DNA of 64,000 nucleotides, from contig JAQWDH010000005.1 of NCBI GenBank assembly GCA_028705565.1, positions 5,803 to 69,802 of the forward strand, read 5' to 3'. A program made the translations under genes and the position numbers. Shown here piece after piece: positions 4,346 through 53,573 of this stretch. This DNA comes from Patescibacteria group bacterium (lineage in GTDB: Bacteria; Patescibacteriota; Patescibacteriia; Magasanikbacterales; GWA2-37-8). Each line of letters begins with the position of its first letter. Positions within the stretch are counted from its first letter, which is position 1. The notes beneath the pieces were generated by a model. That model worked only from the letters and a program-made list of their open reading frames with translations, did not search any database and was not told the DNA's origin.

Positions 4346-5101
4346 ATGCTCTCTCCGCGAGCCGAACAACTTATAACTGAATATCTTAATCTCCCCTTTC
4401 CTGGCGTTATCGGCGCGCGCTGTCCGTATTTTAACAACATCCGCTCCAAGCAACGCGCCCAACTTGGGGTTTTAATCGGCAAAGGAAGTCCTCTGGAAAT
4501 AATTGAAGAAGCGCAAATTATCGCCACCCAATATCGCGCCAAAGAAATTTTGTCTTCAACCCCTGAAAAAATACGCGAGTTTCTAATCAATAATAATCTC
4601 GGGATTGAATGTTCCGGTTTTGTAACGCGCGTTTTATCCGCGCACTTCCGAGAAACCGCCGGCGTTGATTTAATTAAAAAATTATTTATCGTGTCGCCAA
4701 AATATTTTTTGCGCTGGATCATTACCAAATTAAGGCCGATTGAAAATATCAACGTAAATGTCTACGCGAACGATAAAAACACGAAAAAAATAAAATGGCG
4801 AGACGCGCGCGCCGGAGATGTGATAATATTTCTTGGTACGAACTCGCGTTACAATCGCAATCACATTATTTTAATAACCGAAAAAAACGACCAAACCGCG
4901 AAATATGCCCACGCGCGAGCTTGGGCAAGCGAAGGAAAATACGGACATGGGGTCTGCGAAGGTGAAATCAAAACCGTAAACCCAAACGGAGAAATCATTG
5001 AACAAACATGGGTTGAAAAAAACAAAATCGGATCGGAAAATGAAACTTATTTGGAAGCTGTACAGGCCAAAACCGTGGAAATAAGAAGAATTAAAATTTA
5101 A
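4346..5101 (+). CDS. Hypothetical protein, possible papain-like cysteine peptidase (NlpC/P60/CHAP-like?)
   Basis: 251 aa; candidate catalytic Cys in GIECSGFVTRVL and His in NRNHIILITE; family assignment weak. Confidence 0.3.
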   Translation: MLSPRAEQLITEYLNLPFPGVIGARCPYFNNIRSKQRAQLGVLIGKGSPLEIIEEAQIIATQYRAKEILSSTPEKIREFLINNNLGIECSGFVTRVLSAHFRETAGVDLIKKLFIVSPKYFLRWIITKLRPIENINVNVYANDKNTKKIKWRDARAGDVIIFLGTNSRYNRNHIILITEKNDQTAKYAHARAWASEGKYGHGVCEGEIKTVNPNGEIIEQTWVEKNKIGSENETYLEAVQAKTVEIRRIKI

Positions 5102-6255: not shown

Positions 6256-6903
6256 ATGTCTTCTTATTTGACTTGGGACAGAATTAAAAATACGGATTTT
6301 TCCGAAACAAAAATAAACTCGCTTTACAACGAAGGGTATCTTTTTACGCGAATCGGAAAAGGCATCATGGACCAAACAAGAAGCGCGCGGATTGATTTGA
6401 ATAAATTCAATTTATCAAGCGAAAACAAACGGATATTGAAAAAAATGGAAAACGCGCGAATGGAAATAAAACCGATTCCATTGCTTGATTATGAATGGTC
6501 GGTGCATAAAATGGGAAAAGATTTTTATGAAAAAAAATTCGGGCCCGAAATTTTCAGTGCGCAAAAAATAAAAGAATTGATTACTGACAAAGAAAAAAGC
6601 AATTTTAACCGGCTGTTCGTTTTTTCAATCAATGACAAACCGGCTGGTTATTGCATCACTCTTGAAACCGACGAAATTTTGCATTATTCTTATCCCTTTT
6701 ATCAGCTATCGCTCCACATCGGCATGGGCATGATGACCAAGGCGGTGGCATGGGCAAAAGAAAAAAACAAAAAATATGTTTATCTTGGTTCGGCGCAACG
6801 CCCGACTGACGTTTATAAATTTCAATTTGAAGGCATGGAGTGGTTTGACGGCAAACAATGGATGAATGACATTAAAAAACTTAAAGAAATATTAAAAAAT
6901 TAA
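6256..6903 (+). CDS. Aminoacyl-tRNA-dependent transferase-like protein (ATE_C/Bpt-like GNAT fold; Fem-like alternative)
   Basis: 215 aa; C-terminal YVYLGSAQRPTDVYKFQFEGMEWFDGKQW resembles ATE_C/Bpt signature; sits in peptidoglycan gene context. Confidence 0.4.
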   Translation: MSSYLTWDRIKNTDFSETKINSLYNEGYLFTRIGKGIMDQTRSARIDLNKFNLSSENKRILKKMENARMEIKPIPLLDYEWSVHKMGKDFYEKKFGPEIFSAQKIKELITDKEKSNFNRLFVFSINDKPAGYCITLETDEILHYSYPFYQLSLHIGMGMMTKAVAWAKEKNKKYVYLGSAQRPTDVYKFQFEGMEWFDGKQWMNDIKKLKEILKN

Positions 6904-6928
6904 TGATATAAATTATTTTGCATATAGA

Positions 6929-7017
6929 GCTAAAATATTTTTTTATCTTTTTATTACCAACCGCCCGCAGGCGGCGGTCCTGAAAGGCCGTTTAAAAAGA
7001 TAAAAAAATATTTTAGC
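6929..7017. repeat. Structured intergenic element: about 24-bp AT-rich inverted repeat enclosing GC-rich hairpins
   Basis: gctaaaatatttttttatcttttt ... aaaaagataaaaaaatattttagc are exact reverse complements; inner ccgcc-cgcag-gcggcgg and ggcc hairpins. Confidence 0.7.
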
Positions 7018-7041
7018 GATATCGCGGAATTCTAATAAATT

Positions 7042-14555: not shown

Positions 14556-14732
14556 TTGTCATTCCGATCCGCCCGGGGCGGAGAGAAATCTCTGCCGGTT
14601 ATTGTAAACCGGACAGAGATCCCTCGTTTCACTCGGGATGACACTTAAGTTTTTGTCATTCCGACGAAGGAGGAATCCCTGTCGGTTATTGTAAACCGGA
14701 CAGAGTTCCCTCGTTTCACTCGGGATGACACT
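14556..14732. repeat. Two tandem copies of palindromic MITE-like element (gtcattccga ... tcgggatgac termini; inner ctctg-ccggtt...aaccgg-acagag)
   Basis: Copy 1 14556-14645, copy 2 14653-14732, about 85% identical; termini and inner palindromes read directly. Confidence 0.8.
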
Positions 14733-14735
14733 TTC

Positions 14736-15875
14736 TTACAACCATCCACACTCCACCTTCCACCCCTCCTCCTCCTGGGGTGTCCATATGCATGGGTCTT
14801 GTTGACCTGTCTCGTCAACAAGACCATCGCAATCATTATCAAATGAATCGCCCGTGGTGTCGTGCATCCACGGGTTGTTCAATATTGACCCGTCGGTCCG
14901 GAAGAAAAAAAACGAACCTTCTGGACACTGGGTCTCTGTTAAAATAAATAATTTTCCAGTATCCTCTAGACACACTGTCCACTCCTCCAAATCGGTGGGG
15001 TCATCGTCGCAATCTCCACCCCACCAGACCTCGCACAACCTATTAACAGAATCAATGCACGGCGCCACCTCGCAGTGGCAATCTCCGTCATCGTCTGTAT
15101 TATCTTCACAATCTTCATCTGTATCATTATTACAATTACTATCAATATCATCTCCGCATATCTCTTCTGCGGCCGGGTTTATATTTGAATTAATATCGTC
15201 GCAATCCGGTCCTAACTCACAATTTTCTCCATAGTTATCGCCGTCGTTGTCTATGCATTCAAGAATAACAATTTCTCTTATACCGGCAAACATGAATGCC
15301 GGTTCATTATGAACTGTGGAGCACCTTGGGTCCACCCCGTCACAATTTTCATCAATTCCATTTCCGCATATTTCTGTTGCACTTGGATTGATAAAAAACG
15401 AAGTATCGTCGCAATCTTCCGGCGACAAAAAATTGTCGCCGTCACGGTCGCAAACATTGAGGTCGTCAACCTCAAGATTGCAATTATCATCAATTCCGTT
15501 ACCACATATTTCTGTTGCGCCGTGATGAATGCGTGGATTTCGCGGAGCACAATCAGTTTCGTTCGGATCTCCGTCATTATCAAAATCATCCGAAGGACAC
15601 GCGGCGACGATTCCGTCGCAGTCCTCGTCAATTCCATTTTCGCAGATTTCTGTTGCGCCAGGATTTATCTCTGAATCATTATCATCACAATCTGGTCCCA
15701 ACTCACAATCTTCACCATAATTATCACCGTCGTTGTCTATACAACTATTATTATCGCAGTTATTAGAGCCATAGCATGGCTCATAGCAGCTATTGATTGA
15801 GATCAATATACTCAACCCTACAAAAAAGAAAAACAAAAAAATAATACTGATAATAATATTTCTTTTTCCTATCAT
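14736..15875 (-). CDS. Membrane-anchored Cys-rich repeat protein, MopE-like putative metal-binding motif repeats
   Basis: N-terminal TM; at least 5 repeats of DNDGDNYGEDCELGPDCDD..INP.A.EICGNGIDE.CDG; codon usage visibly GC-richer than neighbours. Confidence 0.6.
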   Translation of the reverse strand: MIGKRNIIISIIFLFFFFVGLSILISINSCYEPCYGSNNCDNNSCIDNDGDNYGEDCELGPDCDDNDSEINPGATEICENGIDEDCDGIVAACPSDDFDNDGDPNETDCAPRNPRIHHGATEICGNGIDDNCNLEVDDLNVCDRDGDNFLSPEDCDDTSFFINPSATEICGNGIDENCDGVDPRCSTVHNEPAFMFAGIREIVILECIDNDGDNYGENCELGPDCDDINSNINPAAEEICGDDIDSNCNNDTDEDCEDNTDDDGDCHCEVAPCIDSVNRLCEVWWGGDCDDDPTDLEEWTVCLEDTGKLFILTETQCPEGSFFFFRTDGSILNNPWMHDTTGDSFDNDCDGLVDETGQQDPCIWTPQEEEGWKVECGWL

Positions 15876-16008: not shown

Positions 16009-16173
16009 AAGAATACGCAAGTATAGCATATTTTAGCTGTCATCCTGAACACAGTGAAGGAACTCTGTCTGTTGTTGTTTAATCAATTGGACAGAGATTC
16101 TTCGCTTTGCTCAGAATGACAATTAACAAAACTCGCTAAAAGTTCAAAGAATACGCAAGTATAGCATATTTTG
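16009..16173. repeat. MITE-like palindromic element (gtcatcctgaac...tgctcagaatgac) flanked by 28-bp direct repeats caaagaatacgcaagtatagcatatttt
   Basis: Direct repeats at 16009-16036 and 16146-16173; inner element 16037-16131 has ctctgtc/gacagag inner palindrome like the 14556 family. Confidence 0.75.
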
Positions 16174-34255: not shown

Positions 34256-35251
34256 TTATTTCTTATTTTTCTTTCCATTTAAATATCTCTTCATTGTTTT
34301 ATCAAAATCAGAAATAAGATTTTTGTTCTGTTCTTTTTTGTATTTTTCAAATTCTGCATTAGCCACCAGTACGGCTTGCTCGGCGCTTACTTTACCTGAA
34401 TTAACTAGAAGTTTTTTCTCGCTCAGTTTCAAAAAATCATCAAGTTTACCAATCCAGTCAGTCATTTTCATAAATCGACCGTTTGTTGCTTGTAATTCAG
34501 CAAAATCTAAATAAAGTGAAACAATTAAATTGAGTTGTTTTAGCTCGTTCTCCGACAAATAATTCTTGGCAATTTTTATATCTTGAGCGGTGACGTATTT
34601 ACCCTTGAAATTAGTTAGCCCCATCATCAGTTTTTTGCTATTCGCCCGATTGGCCACAATTTCTGCTGCCGTTTGTCCATGAACAGCAAAATGCATTTTG
34701 TTTTGAACAATAGCAAAAAAATCTTTTGTTAGTTCGTCGTCCTTTTTATAATCAATGCTAGTGGCGTAAATGTCGGTTACTTTTTGATAAAAATTGCGTT
34801 CACTACTCCGGATATCTCTAATTCTTTGGAGCAGTTCTTCAAAATAACGCGATTTATTATCGCCCTGTTTTAATCGTTCATCGTCTAACACAAACCCTTT
34901 TATAATATATTCCTTAAGCCGCTGTGTTGCCCAAATTCTAAACTGTGTTCCACGCAATGATTTAACTCGATAGCCGACGGAAATAATGATATCAAGATTA
35001 TAATAATTTGTCGGTTTAGTAGAAAATTCGGAATTTCCGAATTTTCTCATTGTTTGTGCTAAAACAAGCTCTTTTTCATCATAAATATTCTGAATGTGCT
35101 CATTTACCGTAGATTTTGATTTATCAAAAAGAACAGTCATTTCATCTTGGGTAAGCCAAACAGTTCCATCTTCCATTTTCACTTGCAGTTTTGCTTCCCC
35201 GTCATCAGTGGTGTAAATAATTATTTGTGACTTATGGTTGTTTTTTTTCAT
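34256..35251 (-). CDS. RhuM-family (virulence protein RhuM-like) protein
   Basis: 331 aa; N-terminus IIIYTTDDGEAKLQVKMEDGTVWLTQDEMTVLFDKSKSTVNEHIQNIYDEKEL matches the conserved RhuM-family N-region. Confidence 0.6.
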   Translation of the reverse strand: MKKNNHKSQIIIYTTDDGEAKLQVKMEDGTVWLTQDEMTVLFDKSKSTVNEHIQNIYDEKELVLAQTMRKFGNSEFSTKPTNYYNLDIIISVGYRVKSLRGTQFRIWATQRLKEYIIKGFVLDDERLKQGDNKSRYFEELLQRIRDIRSSERNFYQKVTDIYATSIDYKKDDELTKDFFAIVQNKMHFAVHGQTAAEIVANRANSKKLMMGLTNFKGKYVTAQDIKIAKNYLSENELKQLNLIVSLYLDFAELQATNGRFMKMTDWIGKLDDFLKLSEKKLLVNSGKVSAEQAVLVANAEFEKYKKEQNKNLISDFDKTMKRYLNGKKNKK

Positions 35252-35380
35252 ACATTCATGAGAATTCAGGCATTATTTTGGTCATGCGCAGATATTGGAT
35301 AATGTTTATTATAATATACTTTTTTCGTTGTTTGTACATCAATTCAAAGTAAGTGCATCAATGGAACATAAAATCCGCTA

Positions 35381-35455
35381 TGGTAGCCCCAACGGGAATC
35401 GAACCCGTATTACCACATTGAAAGCGTGGTGTCCTAGCCATTAGACGATGGGGCC
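35381..35455 (-). tRNA. tRNA-Glu (anticodon UUC), CCA encoded
   Basis: Cloverleaf folded by hand: acceptor GGCCCCA/TGGGGCT, anticodon stem CCACG/TGTGG, loop CTTTCAA, T-loop GGTTCGATTCC. Confidence 0.85.
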
Positions 35456-35557
35456 AGAAAAAATTTAAAAGCGTAATTATTATATGTTATTTTTAATCAA
35501 AAGTCAAGGGATAACATTGACATTTGCTGAATTTTTTGATAAAATTATTTTAACTTT

Positions 35558-35631
35558 GTCAGGGTAGCTCAGATGGTTAGAGCACGGGATTCATAACCCC
35601 GAGGTCGGGAGTTCGATTCTCCCCCCTGACA
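35558..35631 (+). tRNA. tRNA-Met (anticodon CAU; elongator or Ile-lysidine type, 1-72 paired)
   Basis: Acceptor GTCAGGG/CCCTGAC, D-arm GCTCAGATGGTTAGAGC, anticodon loop TTCATAA, T-arm GGGAGTTCGATTCTCCC. Confidence 0.85.
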
Positions 35632-35676
35632 CTAAAAATCGTTCTTTAAAATCTGCCGATTGGCGGAAGGAGGAAA

Positions 35677-44609: not shown

Positions 44610-45641
44610 TTAAAATTGTTTCAAAAATCTTATGTCTCCGCTTTCCAACAAACGAATGTCATCTATGCCGTATTTAAGCATTGCCAAACGAGTGAGTCCG
44701 AAACCGAAAGCGAATCCCTGATATTTTTTCGAGTCAACATCGCCCTCGCGCAATACATTCGGATGAATCATGCCGGCGCCCAAAATTTCCAGCCATCCTG
44801 TTTCTTTGCACAATCGGCACCCTTTGCCTTTGCACAAAAAGCAAGTTACTTCGCCATTCACGCCCGGTTCAACAAAAGGATAAAACTTTGGCCTCAACCG
44901 AACTTCTGTGTCTTTTCCATATAAATGTTTGGCGACTATTTCCAAAACGCCTTTCATATGTCCGAAGTTTATATTTTCATCAATTACAACACCTTCCAGC
45001 TGATAAAATGTGTGCTCGTGCCGCACGTCGGTTGCCTCATTGCGAAAACATTTCCCCGGCGATATCATGCGCAAAGGCGCGCCGTATTTTTGCATCGCGC
45101 GAACTTGCACCGAGGATGTCTGCGTGCGCATAAGCCAATTCGGATGATTTTTAATATAAAAAGAATCCTGCGAATCGCGAGCCGGATGGTCAACCGGTAT
45201 GTTGACGGCCGTAAAATTATAATATTCGCTTTCAAGCTCCGGACCGTCCAAAATCAAAAAACCCATTGAAGAAAATAAATCTTCCAGGTCGCGCTGAACA
45301 ATCGTATTCGGATGAAAATGCCCTCTCTCAAACGGAGGCAGGGATGGAGCCGTAATGTCAATTTTTTCTTTTGCCAAAGATTTTTGCCAATCAGATTCCG
45401 ACAATTCGCGTTTTTTTTGTTCCAACGCGGACTCTATTTCCTTTTTCACTTCATTGGCAATTTGTCCGACGGCTTTTTTAGCTTCCGCGTTCATATCTTT
45501 AAGTTCCTTCATCAAATCGGTAAGCTCTCCGCTTTTGCGTCCCAAAATTTTATTTTCCAAACTTTCCAAATCAATTTTGTCTTTAACAGCCTTCAACGCC
45601 ATTATCGCCTCTTCTTTAAGTTTTTTAAATTTTGATTCCAT
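44610..45641 (-). CDS. pheS: Phenylalanyl-tRNA synthetase alpha subunit
   Basis: 343 aa; class II motifs, FRNE..., GFAFGFGLTRLAML. Confidence 0.9.
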   Translation of the reverse strand: MESKFKKLKEEAIMALKAVKDKIDLESLENKILGRKSGELTDLMKELKDMNAEAKKAVGQIANEVKKEIESALEQKKRELSESDWQKSLAKEKIDITAPSLPPFERGHFHPNTIVQRDLEDLFSSMGFLILDGPELESEYYNFTAVNIPVDHPARDSQDSFYIKNHPNWLMRTQTSSVQVRAMQKYGAPLRMISPGKCFRNEATDVRHEHTFYQLEGVVIDENINFGHMKGVLEIVAKHLYGKDTEVRLRPKFYPFVEPGVNGEVTCFLCKGKGCRLCKETGWLEILGAGMIHPNVLREGDVDSKKYQGFAFGFGLTRLAMLKYGIDDIRLLESGDIRFLKQF

Positions 45642-45649
45642 ATTTTTAT

Positions 45650-45755
45650 GGTATGTAACGAATTACGAAAATAAAATATATGACGAACTACGAAAGGTAC
45701 GAAAATACGAAATGAGAGTGAGAATATGTAACGAACTGCGGAAGGTATAAAAAAT
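45650..45755. repeat. Repeat copy A (cgaactacgaaaggtacgaaaatacgaaatgagagtgagaatatgt) plus degenerate acgaa-type partial repeats
   Basis: Matches copies at 47764-47800 (direct) and 48227-48291 (inverted). Confidence 0.75.
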
Positions 45756-45761
45756 TATTTT

Positions 45762-47060
45762 TTAAAATATCCTTCCTAAAAATCCAATGATTGTTGATTT
45801 GAACACGCTTACGTCTCTCACTGTGATAAAAATCGCGAACGCCATTATCAAAGCGAATCCTACAGTATGCACCCATTGTTCAACTCTTGTGGAAACCGGC
45901 CGTCTGGTTATTTTATTTATAAACAGGAAAAACAATCGTCCGCCGTCTAAAGATGGAAAAGGCAAAATGTTAAAAATCGCGAGGTTTAAAGAAAGAAGCG
46001 CGGCAAACTGCATTAAATAAGCGAAGCCGAGTCGCGCGAACCTGCCTGTCATTACAGCTATTCCGACAGGTCCGGAAACCGCGCCCCCAACGCCGGCGCC
46101 CGTTATTAATCCTTTAATAAGAAAATAAAAAGCTAAAAATATTTCTTTCAAATAAATAAACGCTTCAATAAACCCGTGGTAAAAAGCTTCGTACCAAGGG
46201 TAACTCACAATGCCGGTTTCGGCGATTGACACGCCCAAACCGCCCTTTCCGCTGTCTTGATAAACCATCGGATGAATTTTTTTCTCAAATGTTTCATTAC
46301 CGCGTTTTACGCTCACGGCTAATTCCTTATCTTTGTTTTCATTTACATAATTTTGTATTTCTTTAAGTCGCGGGTTTTCCAAAACGTCAATTTTTATTAT
46401 CGCGTCACCGGCCATAAGTTCGGATTTTTCAGCCGGAGAATCGGCTATGACTTGCATTATCTCAACCCGCCAATCGCGCACTTTGCTCACATCATTCAAA
46501 TTTTCCGTCGTCTGCGGCAAACCGAACATAAAACCGATTGAAAGCAAAATTATCGCGACAAAAATATTCATTATCACGCCGGCTGACATAAATATGGCGC
46601 GACGCCACGGAGCCTTGTTCGCCAAACTGTCCGCTTCTTCAGAGTTATCGCCTGTTTCTCCTTTTATTTTTACAAAACCGCCAAGAGGAATAAAATTCAA
46701 CGAATAAACCGTGCCACCGCCCTCAATCGGCTCTATTTCTTTATTGCCAAAAATAAAACGATATTTTTTAATCGGCGCGACAATATCAATTTCTTTTTTT
46801 ACATCTGTAATCGTTTCTTGTATTATCTCTCGCCCGTCTTGCGATTTAATATCAGATGTTTGAACACTAATCGTTTCTTTTTCCGCGATTTTTTCCAATT
46901 TATTTCCGCGCAAAATTTGCACGCCGAAAATTCTCGGAGGAAATCCGAAACCGAATTCATCCACTCTTACTCCATTTTTACGCGCGGCGATAAAATGCCC
47001 GTATTCGTGCGAGATAACAAGCAAGGCGAGAATTGCGATAAAAGTGATGATTGTAAACAT
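45762..47060 (-). CDS. rseP: RseP-like site-2 protease (M50 family) with PDZ domain
   Basis: 432 aa; HEYGHFIAARKNGV HExxH motif in TM1, PDZ, LDGG. Confidence 0.75.
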   Translation of the reverse strand: MFTIITFIAILALLVISHEYGHFIAARKNGVRVDEFGFGFPPRIFGVQILRGNKLEKIAEKETISVQTSDIKSQDGREIIQETITDVKKEIDIVAPIKKYRFIFGNKEIEPIEGGGTVYSLNFIPLGGFVKIKGETGDNSEEADSLANKAPWRRAIFMSAGVIMNIFVAIILLSIGFMFGLPQTTENLNDVSKVRDWRVEIMQVIADSPAEKSELMAGDAIIKIDVLENPRLKEIQNYVNENKDKELAVSVKRGNETFEKKIHPMVYQDSGKGGLGVSIAETGIVSYPWYEAFYHGFIEAFIYLKEIFLAFYFLIKGLITGAGVGGAVSGPVGIAVMTGRFARLGFAYLMQFAALLSLNLAIFNILPFPSLDGGRLFFLFINKITRRPVSTRVEQWVHTVGFALIMAFAIFITVRDVSVFKSTIIGFLGRIF

Positions 47061-47196
47061 AATTCAATAAAAATTATAATTCGCGCGATAACCTTGTCTT
47101 TTCTCCATTATTTGTTCTATAATAACACAACAAACCCGATATAATCTCCAAAGATATTTATCGGACAAACTTTAATTCTTAAATCATATCAATTAT

Positions 47197-47763
47197 ATGA
47201 TAATAGTTTATATCATTTTAGGCGCAGTGGCAATAGGAGCTTTATGGATTATCGCCACATACAACGGTTTAATACGATCAAAAAACAGGGTGGATGAATC
47301 TTATAGCGACATTGATGTCCAACTCAAACGCAGGTATGATTTGATACCGAATTTGGTGGAAACCGTGAGAGGATATATGACACACGAAAGAGAAACATTG
47401 GTAAAACTCACCGAAGCGCGAACCGCGGCGATGTCAACGCGCGAAAACAAAACCGCTTCTTTGGCTGAAAAAGAAAACGCGGAAAACGCGTTGAGCCAAA
47501 CATTGAAAAGTTTGTTCGCGGTTACGGAAAATTATCCGGCGTTGCGGGCAAGCGAAAATTTTTTACAGCTGCAAAATGAGCTGTCAGACACGGAAAACAA
47601 GATTCAAGCCGCGCGCCGATTTTACAACGGCAATGTCCGCGATTTCAATATAAAAATTCAAATCTTTCCGACAAACATTATCGCCAACATGCTAAAATTC
47701 AACAAATACGATTTTTTTCAAGCCAATGATGGTGAACGACAAAATATACAGGTAAAATTATAA
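47197..47763 (+). CDS. lemA: LemA family protein
   Basis: 188 aa; N-terminal TM then LemA helical domain; canonical partner htpX downstream. Confidence 0.8.
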   Translation: MIIVYIILGAVAIGALWIIATYNGLIRSKNRVDESYSDIDVQLKRRYDLIPNLVETVRGYMTHERETLVKLTEARTAAMSTRENKTASLAEKENAENALSQTLKSLFAVTENYPALRASENFLQLQNELSDTENKIQAARRFYNGNVRDFNIKIQIFPTNIIANMLKFNKYDFFQANDGERQNIQVKL

Positions 47764-47800
47764 TTACGTACGAACTACGAAAGGTACGAAAATACGAAAA
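47764..47800. repeat. Repeat copy B (cgaactacgaaaggtacgaaaatacgaaa), left flank of GxxExxY cassette
   Basis: Direct match to copy A. Confidence 0.75.
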
Positions 47801-47815
47801 AAATTAATTACAAAT

Positions 47816-48214
47816 ATGGAACGGCGCCAATTAAAACGTACTGACCTTTTATATCCTGATTTATCTTATAAAATTAATGGTATTTTATTTGATGTTTTTA
47901 AAGAACTTGGCGGCGGACATCTAGAAAGATACTACCAAAAAGCTACTGCCTTGGGATTTCGGAACAACGGATTAAAATTTATTGAACAATACCACGTTCC
48001 TTTAGTATACTCCGGGGAAAAAATTGGAAAATACTTCATCGATTTTCTTGTTGAGGATAAAATCGTTTTGGAATTAAAACGAGGAGTATTTATTCCGGCT
48101 AACATTCTGCATCAAGTTAAAAAATATCTGATTTCAACTAATTTAAAACTGGCTCTTATCGCTTGTTTTACAAATAAAGGCGTGGTGGTAAAAAGAATAC
48201 TTAATATATATTAA
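47816..48214 (+). CDS. GxxExxY family protein (PD-(D/E)xK-like)
   Basis: 132 aa; GGHLERYY matches the GxxExxY signature; flanked by inverted repeats. Confidence 0.7.
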   Translation: MERRQLKRTDLLYPDLSYKINGILFDVFKELGGGHLERYYQKATALGFRNNGLKFIEQYHVPLVYSGEKIGKYFIDFLVEDKIVLELKRGVFIPANILHQVKKYLISTNLKLALIACFTNKGVVVKRILNIY

Positions 48215-48226
48215 CTGTATAATAAA

Positions 48227-48291
48227 TTTCGTACTTTCGCATTTCATCACATATTCTCATTTCGTACTTTCGTACCTTTCGTAGTTCGTAC
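48227..48291. repeat. Repeat copy C, inverted orientation (reverse complement of copy A), right flank of GxxExxY cassette
   Basis: Reverse complement gtacgaactacgaaaggtacgaaagtacgaaatgagaatatgt matches copy A. Confidence 0.8.
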
Positions 48292-48298
48292 ATAAATT

Positions 48299-49192
48299 AT
48301 GTATTCTCAAATTTCTTCCAATAAACGCAATTCGGTTTTGCTGATGATGGCAGCGATCGCGATACTCATCTCTTTAGGTTATGTTTTTGATTTGGCATCA
48401 GGACGACAGAATTACGGAGGCGTGGCAATCGCCGTATTTTTTTCTTTTATAATGACTGCTGTGTCATATTTTCAAGGCGATAAAATCGCGCTTTGGTCAA
48501 CTGGCGCTAAACCTGTTTTACACGATGAAAATCAATATCTTTACCACTTGGTGGAAAATCTTTGCATAACTTCCGGTTCTCCGATGCCGAAAATTTATGT
48601 TATTAACGACCCGGCAATCAACGCTTTCGCAACCGGCAGAAAACCAGAACTCGCTTCAGTGGCGATAACACGTGGGGCAATGGAAAAATTAAACAAAGAA
48701 GAATTGGAAGGCGTGCTCGCGCACGAACTTTCGCATATCAAAAATTATGATATCCGTTTTATGACGCTTGTTGCCGTAATAGTCGGCGCAGTGTCTATTC
48801 TTTCAAATATATTTTTGCGTTCCAGATGGTTTTCAGGAGGACGCGACAGCGACCGCGACAACGGAGGCGGACAATTGGCGGCGATTTTTATGATTATAGG
48901 AATTATTTTCGCCATACTTTCCCCTCTTATCGCGGAACTTATCAAACTCGCCGTTTCTCGCCGACGCGAATATCTCGCGGACGCGTCCGGCGCGCTGTTG
49001 ACCCGATATCCGGAAGGGCTCGCTCGAGCGTTGAAAAAAATCGCGTCTGAAAATCTACCTTTGCGTTCCGCTTCTTCAGCAACGGCGCACTTATTCATCG
49101 CCAACCCGTTCAACGGAAAAAAACTATCAGCAATGTTTTCCACTCATCCGCCAGTTGAAGACAGAATAAAAAAATTAAGAGAAATGGCGTAA
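48299..49192 (+). CDS. htpX: Protease HtpX (M48 family)
   Basis: 297 aa; HELSHIKNYD HExxH, 4 TM. Confidence 0.85.
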   Translation: MYSQISSNKRNSVLLMMAAIAILISLGYVFDLASGRQNYGGVAIAVFFSFIMTAVSYFQGDKIALWSTGAKPVLHDENQYLYHLVENLCITSGSPMPKIYVINDPAINAFATGRKPELASVAITRGAMEKLNKEELEGVLAHELSHIKNYDIRFMTLVAVIVGAVSILSNIFLRSRWFSGGRDSDRDNGGGQLAAIFMIIGIIFAILSPLIAELIKLAVSRRREYLADASGALLTRYPEGLARALKKIASENLPLRSASSATAHLFIANPFNGKKLSAMFSTHPPVEDRIKKLREMA

Positions 49193-53475: not shown

Positions 53476-53573
53476 ACAACACAAAATTTTTAATTTTATA
53501 ATTTTTAAATAAATCTTGATGCTTAAATTTTTAAACATTAAAAATTATAAAATTAAAAATTGATACTTGTGTT
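53476..53573. repeat. AT-rich inverted repeat (about 28-bp arms) upstream of the 53580 gene
   Basis: acacaaaatttttaattttataattttt vs reverse complement of aaaaattataaaattaaaaattgatacttgtgt. Confidence 0.7.

Follow-up and report, generated by a model that had tools for sequence, protein, structure and literature searches.

A GxxExxY nuclease gene between inverted motif arrays at the lemA/htpX junction of a Patescibacteria genome: a probable insertion cassette

The window analysed here is a 64,000-nt stretch of a Patescibacteria genome with 39.8% G+C, and all coordinates are positions within it unless a related locus is named. Between 44.6 and 50.6 kb the gene order is pheS (−), rseP (−), lemA (+), a 132-aa open reading frame (ORF; +), htpX (+) and pgm (−). 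The ORF belongs to the GxxExxY family and lies between two inverted repeats. Repeats and gene together (47764–48295) lie exactly between the stop codon of lemA and the start codon of htpX, and it is this segment, with a solo copy of its repeat about 2 kb upstream, that is considered here. The features are as follows.

47197–47763, + strand: lemA, the upstream host gene (PF04011 LemA, 193.9 bits)
47761–47763, + strand: TAA stop codon of lemA, abutting the left arm
47764–47799, + strand: left terminal inverted repeat, four tandem TACGAA motifs at 7–9-nt spacing, TTACGTACGAACTACGAAAGGTACGAAAATACGAAA (inverted repeat I2/I1)
47816–48214, + strand: GxxExxY/PDDEXK_3 nuclease gene, 132 aa, on the same strand as lemA and htpX
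48226–48259, − strand: inner, degenerate extra unit of the right arm (direct repeat D7, inverted repeat I3)
48260–48295, − strand: right terminal inverted repeat, ending 3 nt before the ATG of htpX
48299–49192, + strand: htpX, the downstream host gene (NF003425 HtpX, 345.8 bits)
45652–45745, + strand: solo one-armed repeat array in the pheS/rseP spacer, with an exact 22-mer at 45683 (direct-repeat families D1 and D2)

The product of the ORF scores 85.7 bits against the hidden Markov model TIGR04256 GxxExxY (cut-off 35) and 87.2 bits against PF13366 PDDEXK_3 (cut-off 22); NCBI lists this exact protein as 'GxxExxY protein [Patescibacteria group bacterium]'. The motif itself reads G34-H-L-E37-R-Y-Y40. 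An alignment of 52 homologues shows no variation at E37, D76, E86, K88, Q100 and Y104, and we take these residues to be the E / D / ExK / QxxxY set of RecB/Cas4/lambda-exonuclease-type PD-(D/E)xK nucleases. The AlphaFold2 model (pLDDT 92) has the helix (H) and strand (E) order H-H-E-E-E-H-E-E and is predicted to adopt the restriction-endonuclease-like α/β fold. Its best Foldseek match in the PDB is Cas4 SSO0001 (E = 1.8e-4), followed by lambda exonuclease, tRNA-splicing endonuclease and Hjc; a sequence search of the PDB found no solved relative. The original prediction, made from the letters alone, had placed a GxxExxY ORF of PD-(D/E)xK-like type between lemA and htpX, and the model scores, the invariant residues and the predicted fold bear this out. 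PDDEXK_3 and GxxExxY are the only matches in Pfam and NCBIfam, with no transposase domain and no IS200/IS605-like HUH (Y1) domain. A phage or anti-phage defence gene was considered and dropped, because PADLOC, PHROGs and tblastn of 50,697 phage records gave no match for the protein. The literature on GxxExxY, PDDEXK_3 and PF13366 yielded no functional study and no assigned function; the 2012 survey of the PD-(D/E)xK superfamily enters PDDEXK_3 as 'Unknown', with multiple transfers.

The two arms are 36 nt each and 94% complementary, the best inverted repeat in the window among those within a 1.5-kb span. Each is a run of four TACGAA motifs or, more generally, an array of about four TACGAAA-type heptamer-to-nonamer motifs. 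Inverted repeats bracketing the ORF had been predicted correctly; their extents are revised here to 47764–47799 and 48260–48295, plus the inner partial unit at 48226–48259. Direct repeat D7 (48226–48239, repeated at 48259–48272) joins this unit to the terminal one, and inverted repeat I3 pairs it with 45719–45744. Exactly three copies of the 22-mer ACGAACTACGAAAGGTACGAAA are present in the window (45683 +, 47770 + and 48268 −), where none is expected (100 shuffles). TACGAA/TTCGTA hexamers are not enriched across the window (40 seen, about 42 expected), and their clusters are confined to the two arms and the array at 45652–45745. That third copy does lie about 2 kb upstream, as had been stated; it is not placed after pheS, being located in the spacer that separates the stop of rseP from the start of pheS, 5′ of the minus-strand pheS. 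It consists of three partial units in a single orientation, and folding revealed no hairpin potential (z about +1). When 47740–48320 is folded as RNA, the arms form the closing stem round the whole ORF (−129.1 kcal/mol, z = −5.4). Rfam, searched at gathering scores over the whole window and at E ≤ 1 on 45500–48400, gave no match at the arms, whether to rRNA or to any other RNA family. The nuclease gene appears to have no convincing promoter of its own. The promoter scan gave a single sigma-70-like match (47736–47764), which is not used as evidence because this AT-rich region as a whole has twice as many such sites as its shuffles.

A metagenome scan with HtpX gave 80 related loci (51–75% identity; numbers with the prefix L denote related loci), and lemA precedes htpX in nearly all of them. 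The overall comparison covers about 100 related loci, and about 75 lemA–htpX spacers were classed. In 21 of these the spacer is 0–17 nt, typically TAAttATG, in agreement with the earlier statement that the two genes are normally adjacent and with its call for empty sites in relatives. A middle class of about 30 loci has spacers of 24–270 nt, many with unrelated hairpins or short tandem-motif palindromes, and in about 20 loci the spacer is 390–3100 nt long and carries inserted genes, whose families were assigned with Pfam. The comparison indicates that the segment is an insertion at a lemA-stop/htpX-start junction otherwise 0–17 nt wide. Rather than standing at this locus without repeats in all relatives, the GxxExxY gene is found there in only six scattered lineages (window, L003, L008, L011/L092, L064 and L070), each time with flanking repeats. 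Other genes with inverted repeats of their own occupy the junction elsewhere: 23S_rRNA_IVP four-helix-bundle (4HB) genes in L088 and L050 and a GIY-YIG gene in L074. In L044 the 3130-nt gap contains two long ORFs, of 450 and 326 aa, together with two 78-aa ORFs that by eye resemble a HicA/HicB toxin–antitoxin pair; this insert is another sign of the junction as an insertion hot spot. The window's nearest HtpX relatives have, instead of GxxExxY, an uncharacterised family of 120–330 aa without a Pfam match (gaps of L012, L013, L018, L023, L032, L039, L063, L073 and L077; motif …KMEKEIAxEGKFSIxLPE…IVFYSLATGILKY…). It occupies the full gap without inverted repeats; in L013 there is a duplicate, and the member in L012 has internal repeats.

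In a neighbour-joining tree of HtpX the GxxExxY loci are scattered, and their sisters are empty or otherwise filled. Two pairs fit co-divergence and look vertically inherited: window and L003 (GxxExxY 70%, LemA 68%, HtpX 67% identical), and L011 and L092 (88%, 90% and 83%). The copy in L064 is only 32–42% identical to the others, though LemA and HtpX of this locus are 59–73% identical, and that of L008 is nearer to copies at macB, pilin and type IV secretion system (T4SS) junctions (64–67%) than to the window's (61%); both look independently gained. Since some pairs co-diverge with their flanks and others appear to be separate gains, the junction has been colonised several times independently, with filled copies then persisting. 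L003 and L004 are contigs of CAYTPE01, a metagenome-assembled genome (MAG) labelled 'uncultured Gammaproteobacteria'. Its LemA, HtpX and GxxExxY are 67–70% identical to those of the Patescibacteria window and it has the same repeat; these contigs are probably mis-binned.

Homologues 51–63% identical to the window protein, and one more distant copy, occur at unrelated junctions.

L007: between T4SS-pilin genes
L010: PrgI/TraC-like junction
L100: between two macB/FtsX genes
L108 (Buchananbacteria): cca/rluD-like junction
L110: ftsI/murE-like junction
L111: Na/Ca-exchanger/AdoHcyase junction
L047 (35% identity): upstream of clpB

All of these copies have the orientation of their neighbours, starting a few nucleotides past the upstream stop and ending a few nucleotides short of the downstream start; counting 4HB and GIY-YIG cassettes, about 18 independent insertions are all co-oriented with their neighbours. 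Every one of the 10 independent genes of the main GxxExxY subfamily is flanked by inverted arrays of CGAA-type motifs. The arms are of TACGAAA or TACGAAC type in the window, L003, L008, L010, L070 and L108, of TGCGAAA type in L007 and L100, and of TTCGAAT or TACGAAT type in L011, L092, L110 and L111; the distant member L064 has different inverted arrays. Recurrence of the repeat beside other GxxExxY copies, which the original prediction had proposed as a check, is thus seen at every copy of the subfamily examined, at seven further junctions in other genomes. Gene and family-specific inverted motif arrays form one unit that recurs at unrelated junctions. The 4HB genes have arrays of TGTTnTAA (L088 and L092, two cassettes in different genomes) or CTAAGTT (L010), and the GIY-YIG genes other motifs again. 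Because these cassettes carry other motifs, the data point to a general gene-inside-inverted-repeat architecture in which the motif follows the gene family. IVP and small GIY-YIG genes with their own inverted repeats also lie at other operon junctions (L092 1551–1910, L010 13170–13523, L007 12591–12881), and the IVP cassette of L092 is in the pheS/rseP spacer, the site of the solo TACGAAA array in the window.

A census of arrays covered 611 kb of non-redundant fetched DNA, in pieces of only 8–64 kb per genome. It contains 43 CGAA-type arrays, 19 of which directly flank a GxxExxY gene; a single weak CGAA array was found in the approximately 75 htpX loci that lack the gene. A 20-mer of the arm, scanned against 185,579 species-representative genomes, matched five contigs of four MAGs (three labelled Patescibacteria or Magasanikiibacteriota and one Gammaproteobacteria). 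One match is the lemA–cassette–htpX locus of L003, and the rest are gene-less intergenic arrays or palindromes. Gene-less palindromes were seen in L007, L010, L004–L006 and L108; they share the motif variant of the cassette arms of the same genome (TGCGAAA in L007, TACGAAA in L010). Three near-identical palindromes of about 75 nt with identical loops occupy consecutive spacers within 2 kb of L010 and fold as strong hairpins (z = −7 to −10); the density of solo copies in L010 is about 5 per 20 kb, against 0 per 20 kb in L008 and L011. Arms of the same motif type thus exist also as gene-less hairpins, which have multiplied locally. A one-armed TACGAAA array in L002 (7563–7640) is directly followed by a sigma-70-like promoter (TTGACA-17-TAAGAT) and by a structured leader that precedes thrS; a T-box leader was suspected there, and Rfam gave no confirmation.

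Between genomes the arms are 76–95% identical, the ORF 64–71%. The left arm of the window is 86–95% identical to the arms of L003, with third codon positions of the two genes 47% identical and the synonymous substitution rate (dS) saturated. The two substitutions that distinguish the arms of L011 from those of L092 occur in both arms of each genome, and the arms therefore remain 35/35 complementary. In each of the five genomes in which both flanking genes were measured, the GxxExxY gene has a lower G+C content at third codon positions (GC3) than either of them (window, 0.25 versus 0.42–0.44; L003, 0.37 versus 0.54–0.61; L008, 0.27 versus 0.52–0.55; L011, 0.15 versus 0.27–0.31; L092, 0.12 versus 0.28–0.30), a low value typical of inserted DNA. 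The nuclease gene is intact and under purifying selection, with a ratio of non-synonymous to synonymous rates of about 0.10 between L011 and L092.

On this evidence we consider it probable that 47764–48295 is a mini-cassette of selfish or mobile type, self-contained and promoterless, with a RecB/Cas4-like nuclease gene in terminal inverted repeats, and hold with the same confidence that it is an inserted selfish cassette whose arms belong to the gene. Its mobility and its cleavage mechanism we infer from comparison of the sequences. The nuclease gene would be expressed by read-through from lemA. The motif arrays may be recognition sites of the cassette's own nuclease, a proposal to which we give slightly less than an even chance. 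The enzyme would cut the extruded hairpin, or else the ends or their vicinity, and by doing so would help the cassette and its gene-less derivatives to be copied into further stop/start junctions that are AT-rich. Nuclease and arrays would then be related much as a RAYT (REP-associated tyrosine transposase) is to its REPINs, hairpin-forming pairs of repetitive extragenic palindromic (REP) sequences. In the lemA–cassette–htpX transcript the arms would pair into a duplex of about 36 bp. By analogy with ORF-bearing 23S rRNA intervening sequences, RNase III might cut this duplex, which we hold a little more tentatively than the recognition sites; such cutting would limit polar damage to htpX.

Several observations weigh against this interpretation. 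The link between nuclease and arms is one of association. The distant member L047 has direct arrays of the heptamer ATCCGTA (4570–4630 and 5035–5075), and the borders of 12 cassettes have no consistent direct repeat of the kind left by target-site duplication. A bias of arm mismatches to G-U, a sign of selection at the RNA level, was looked for in these cassettes with a negative result (4 G-U, 7 A-C and 14 other among 25). As only four of the 25 are compatible with G-U pairing, the arm data suggest selection or homogenisation of sequence and complementarity without singling out an RNA stem. The 64-kb window has only one extra copy, which is one-armed, and L008 and L011 have no solo copies in 20 kb; any REPIN-like population is therefore sparse in some genomes. 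Between L011 and L092 the gene has a dS of 0.81, equal to that of its flanks (0.82 and 0.95), which points to long vertical inheritance. The same protein in several contexts would be a sign of recent transposition; across dozens of metagenomes, the identical proteins P0082 and P0026 were each found in one context only. Because its place is fixed within one species and the L011/L092 copies co-diverge with their flanks, the cassette is best read as an old, stably inherited insertion that is not recently hopping. The original prediction, which read the segment as a small mobile or recombination cassette that carries a nuclease-like gene, is supported: the tests it had set (empty sites, absence of the gene from some relatives, recurring repeats) all came out in its favour.

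One alternative, which we think unlikely, is that the hairpin repeats are an independent REP-like family or one resembling miniature inverted-repeat transposable elements (MITEs), moved by another factor, with the GxxExxY gene merely inside and unrelated to them. Many unrelated gene-less hairpin families do fill the same junctions. The layout is also that of the 23S_rRNA_IVP and GIY-YIG genes, whose repeats are quite different, and is therefore generic; in L010 and L108 there is a complete palindrome ahead of the gene and another arm behind it. An independent family would not, however, be expected to supply CGAA-type arms to 10 of 10 independent genes of one subfamily, to be all but missing from the roughly 400 kb of related DNA without the gene, or to have arms better conserved across genomes than the coding sequence.

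Less likely again is a free-standing homing endonuclease that cuts the empty lemA/htpX allele and is copied by recombinational repair, with arms of secondary importance (serving, for example, RNA processing or the control of expression). The insert sits precisely between two conserved genes, at a junction that has been occupied repeatedly, and presence and absence are patchy in relatives, 21 empty TAAttATG-type junctions standing against the occupied ones. Both the PD-(D/E)xK and the GIY-YIG folds are used by homing endonucleases, and GIY-YIG and IVP ORFs occur in non-intron rRNA insertions of candidate phyla radiation (CPR) bacteria (PMC11270868). Homing leaves the gene-less palindromes of the same motif and the better conservation of the arms unexplained, however. 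The same subfamily is found at seven unrelated junctions without common flanking sequence, and the flanking genes of occupied lineages, at about 65–70% nucleotide identity, are too divergent for easy homologous repair.

We give somewhat less credence still to an ordinary, vertically inherited operon gene working with LemA and HtpX, whose arms would be host signals (RNase III sites, terminators, attenuators or operator arrays). The order lemA–GxxExxY–htpX is kept in several lineages, the gene diverges with its flanks (window–L003, 70/68/67%; L011–L092, equal dS), purifying selection is strong, and the gene is co-oriented with its neighbours and without a clear promoter. Against this, most relatives have no gene at lemA/htpX, close homologues lie in functionally unrelated operons, GC3 is consistently atypical for the host and different gene families replace GxxExxY at the same junction. 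TIGR arrays consist of two alternating 8–12-nt repeats with 9-nt variable spacers beside Nop-domain Tas genes, and short-period repeats of TIGR-Tas systems are reported in Patescibacteria (PMC12045711). That our arrays are TIGR- or CRISPR-type guide-RNA arrays, or that the repeat is due to chance or to the metagenome assemblies from which the sequences come, we regard as hardly credible: the motifs follow one another with no spacers, the genes alongside are those of LemA, GxxExxY and HtpX with no Tas gene (the structure and the missing gene on which a TIGR-Tas array was rejected), and the exact cassette and protein were assembled independently in several sources with zero chance matches expected.

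The preferred reading, an inserted cassette that owns its arms, can be compared with known systems. The Coxiella 23S rRNA intervening sequence (IVS) has a 28-bp terminal-repeat stem and tandem heptameric repeats ahead of its ORF, and RNase III removes the IVS (PMC4990558); CPR rRNA insertions encode the 23S_rRNA_IVP and GIY-YIG families, and PDDEXK was not found in the domain table of that survey (PMC11270868). Like the rRNA IVSs of Leptospira, Coxiella and CPR bacteria, the cassette has an ORF of about 120–135 aa in the loop of a long terminal-repeat stem, co-oriented with the host transcript, and a sporadic distribution. It shares with the Coxiella IVS the combination of tandem heptameric repeats and a long stem (28 bp there, 36-nt arms here), and the IVS protein family 23S_rRNA_IVP, as well as GIY-YIG, occupies the lemA/htpX junction in relatives. 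It differs in that the host site is an mRNA operon junction and not an rRNA helix, the ORF encodes a PD-(D/E)xK nuclease and not the four-helix-bundle S23p, and the genome also has dispersed copies of the arms without the gene. As in REPIN–RAYT systems, a single gene lies between inverted copies of a short repeat that is also intergenic elsewhere, as singletons and hairpin-forming inverted pairs. Genome-specific repeat variants match those beside the gene, and there is purifying selection with vertical inheritance over short spans. A RAYT, however, is an IS200/IS605-type HUH tyrosine transposase and not a PD-(D/E)xK enzyme, and a REP is one imperfect palindrome of 20–40 nt whereas the arm is an array of 7–9-nt motifs. 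The copy number here looks low in several genomes, judged from 8–64-kb pieces, and from genome to genome the gene occupies many different junctions. Free-standing homing endonuclease genes (seg/mob of T4-like phages) resemble the cassette in being small nuclease genes inserted precisely between conserved ones, present in some relatives and absent from others, and in using host transcription; neither terminal inverted repeats nor gene-less derivatives are among their features. MITEs and small insertion sequences with terminal inverted repeats resemble it in those repeats, with sub-terminal tandem motifs, and in short gene-less hairpin derivatives in near-identical copies. The cassette is unlike them in having no recognisable DDE, HUH or serine transposase and no target-site duplication, and no multi-copy gene-bearing element was seen within one genome. 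Since it is not in rRNA and has no HUH transposase, it is best filed as IVS-like and REPIN-like and as a member of neither group. Such an insertion cassette has not yet been described for the GxxExxY family.

Some other features of the window were observed. A second hairpin-repeat family (14558–14732 and 16037–16115; TGTCATTCCGA...TCGGGATGACA), with two tandem units of about 80 nt on one side and one on the other, brackets a 379-aa ORF (14736–15875, −) with four Cu-binding_MopE repeats; hairpins of this GTCAT...ATGAC type also fill the lemA/htpX spacers of the Patescibacteria L051, L059, L069 and L043. A RhuM-family gene (34256–35251, −; PF13310, 354 bits) adjoins divergent tRNA-Glu and tRNA-Met genes (35381–35632), and the region 34256–35632 may be the edge of an integrated element. 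Two further palindromes are intergenic: a perfect 24-nt AT-only arm pair after clpB (53485–53561), and a 30-nt palindrome, 93% complementary, after the ORF at 6256–6903 (6924–7022).

The GxxExxY/PDDEXK_3 and the 23S_rRNA_IVP four-helix-bundle proteins are small and very widespread, and the origin of rRNA intervening sequences has been a standing question since about 1990. It is possible, if doubtful, that GxxExxY nucleases and their cognate heptamer-array palindromes represent an undescribed class of mobile element or 'intragenomic symbiont', REPIN–RAYT-like but driven by a PD-(D/E)xK enzyme. The 23S_rRNA_IVP and GIY-YIG cassettes would share its design, and the classical rRNA IVSs would be the rRNA-resident subset of general operon-junction cassettes in Patescibacteria and beyond. 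One element architecture links the two orphan families GxxExxY/PDDEXK_3 and 23S_rRNA_IVP, and the TACGAAA arrays are a concrete, testable candidate substrate for the nuclease. The reproducible unit is a gene with family-specific heptamer-array inverted repeats, which colonises operon stop/start junctions in the very compact genomes of Patescibacteria and leaves gene-less hairpin derivatives. For annotation, such genes and the hairpins that surround them should be treated as insertions and not as members of the operon.

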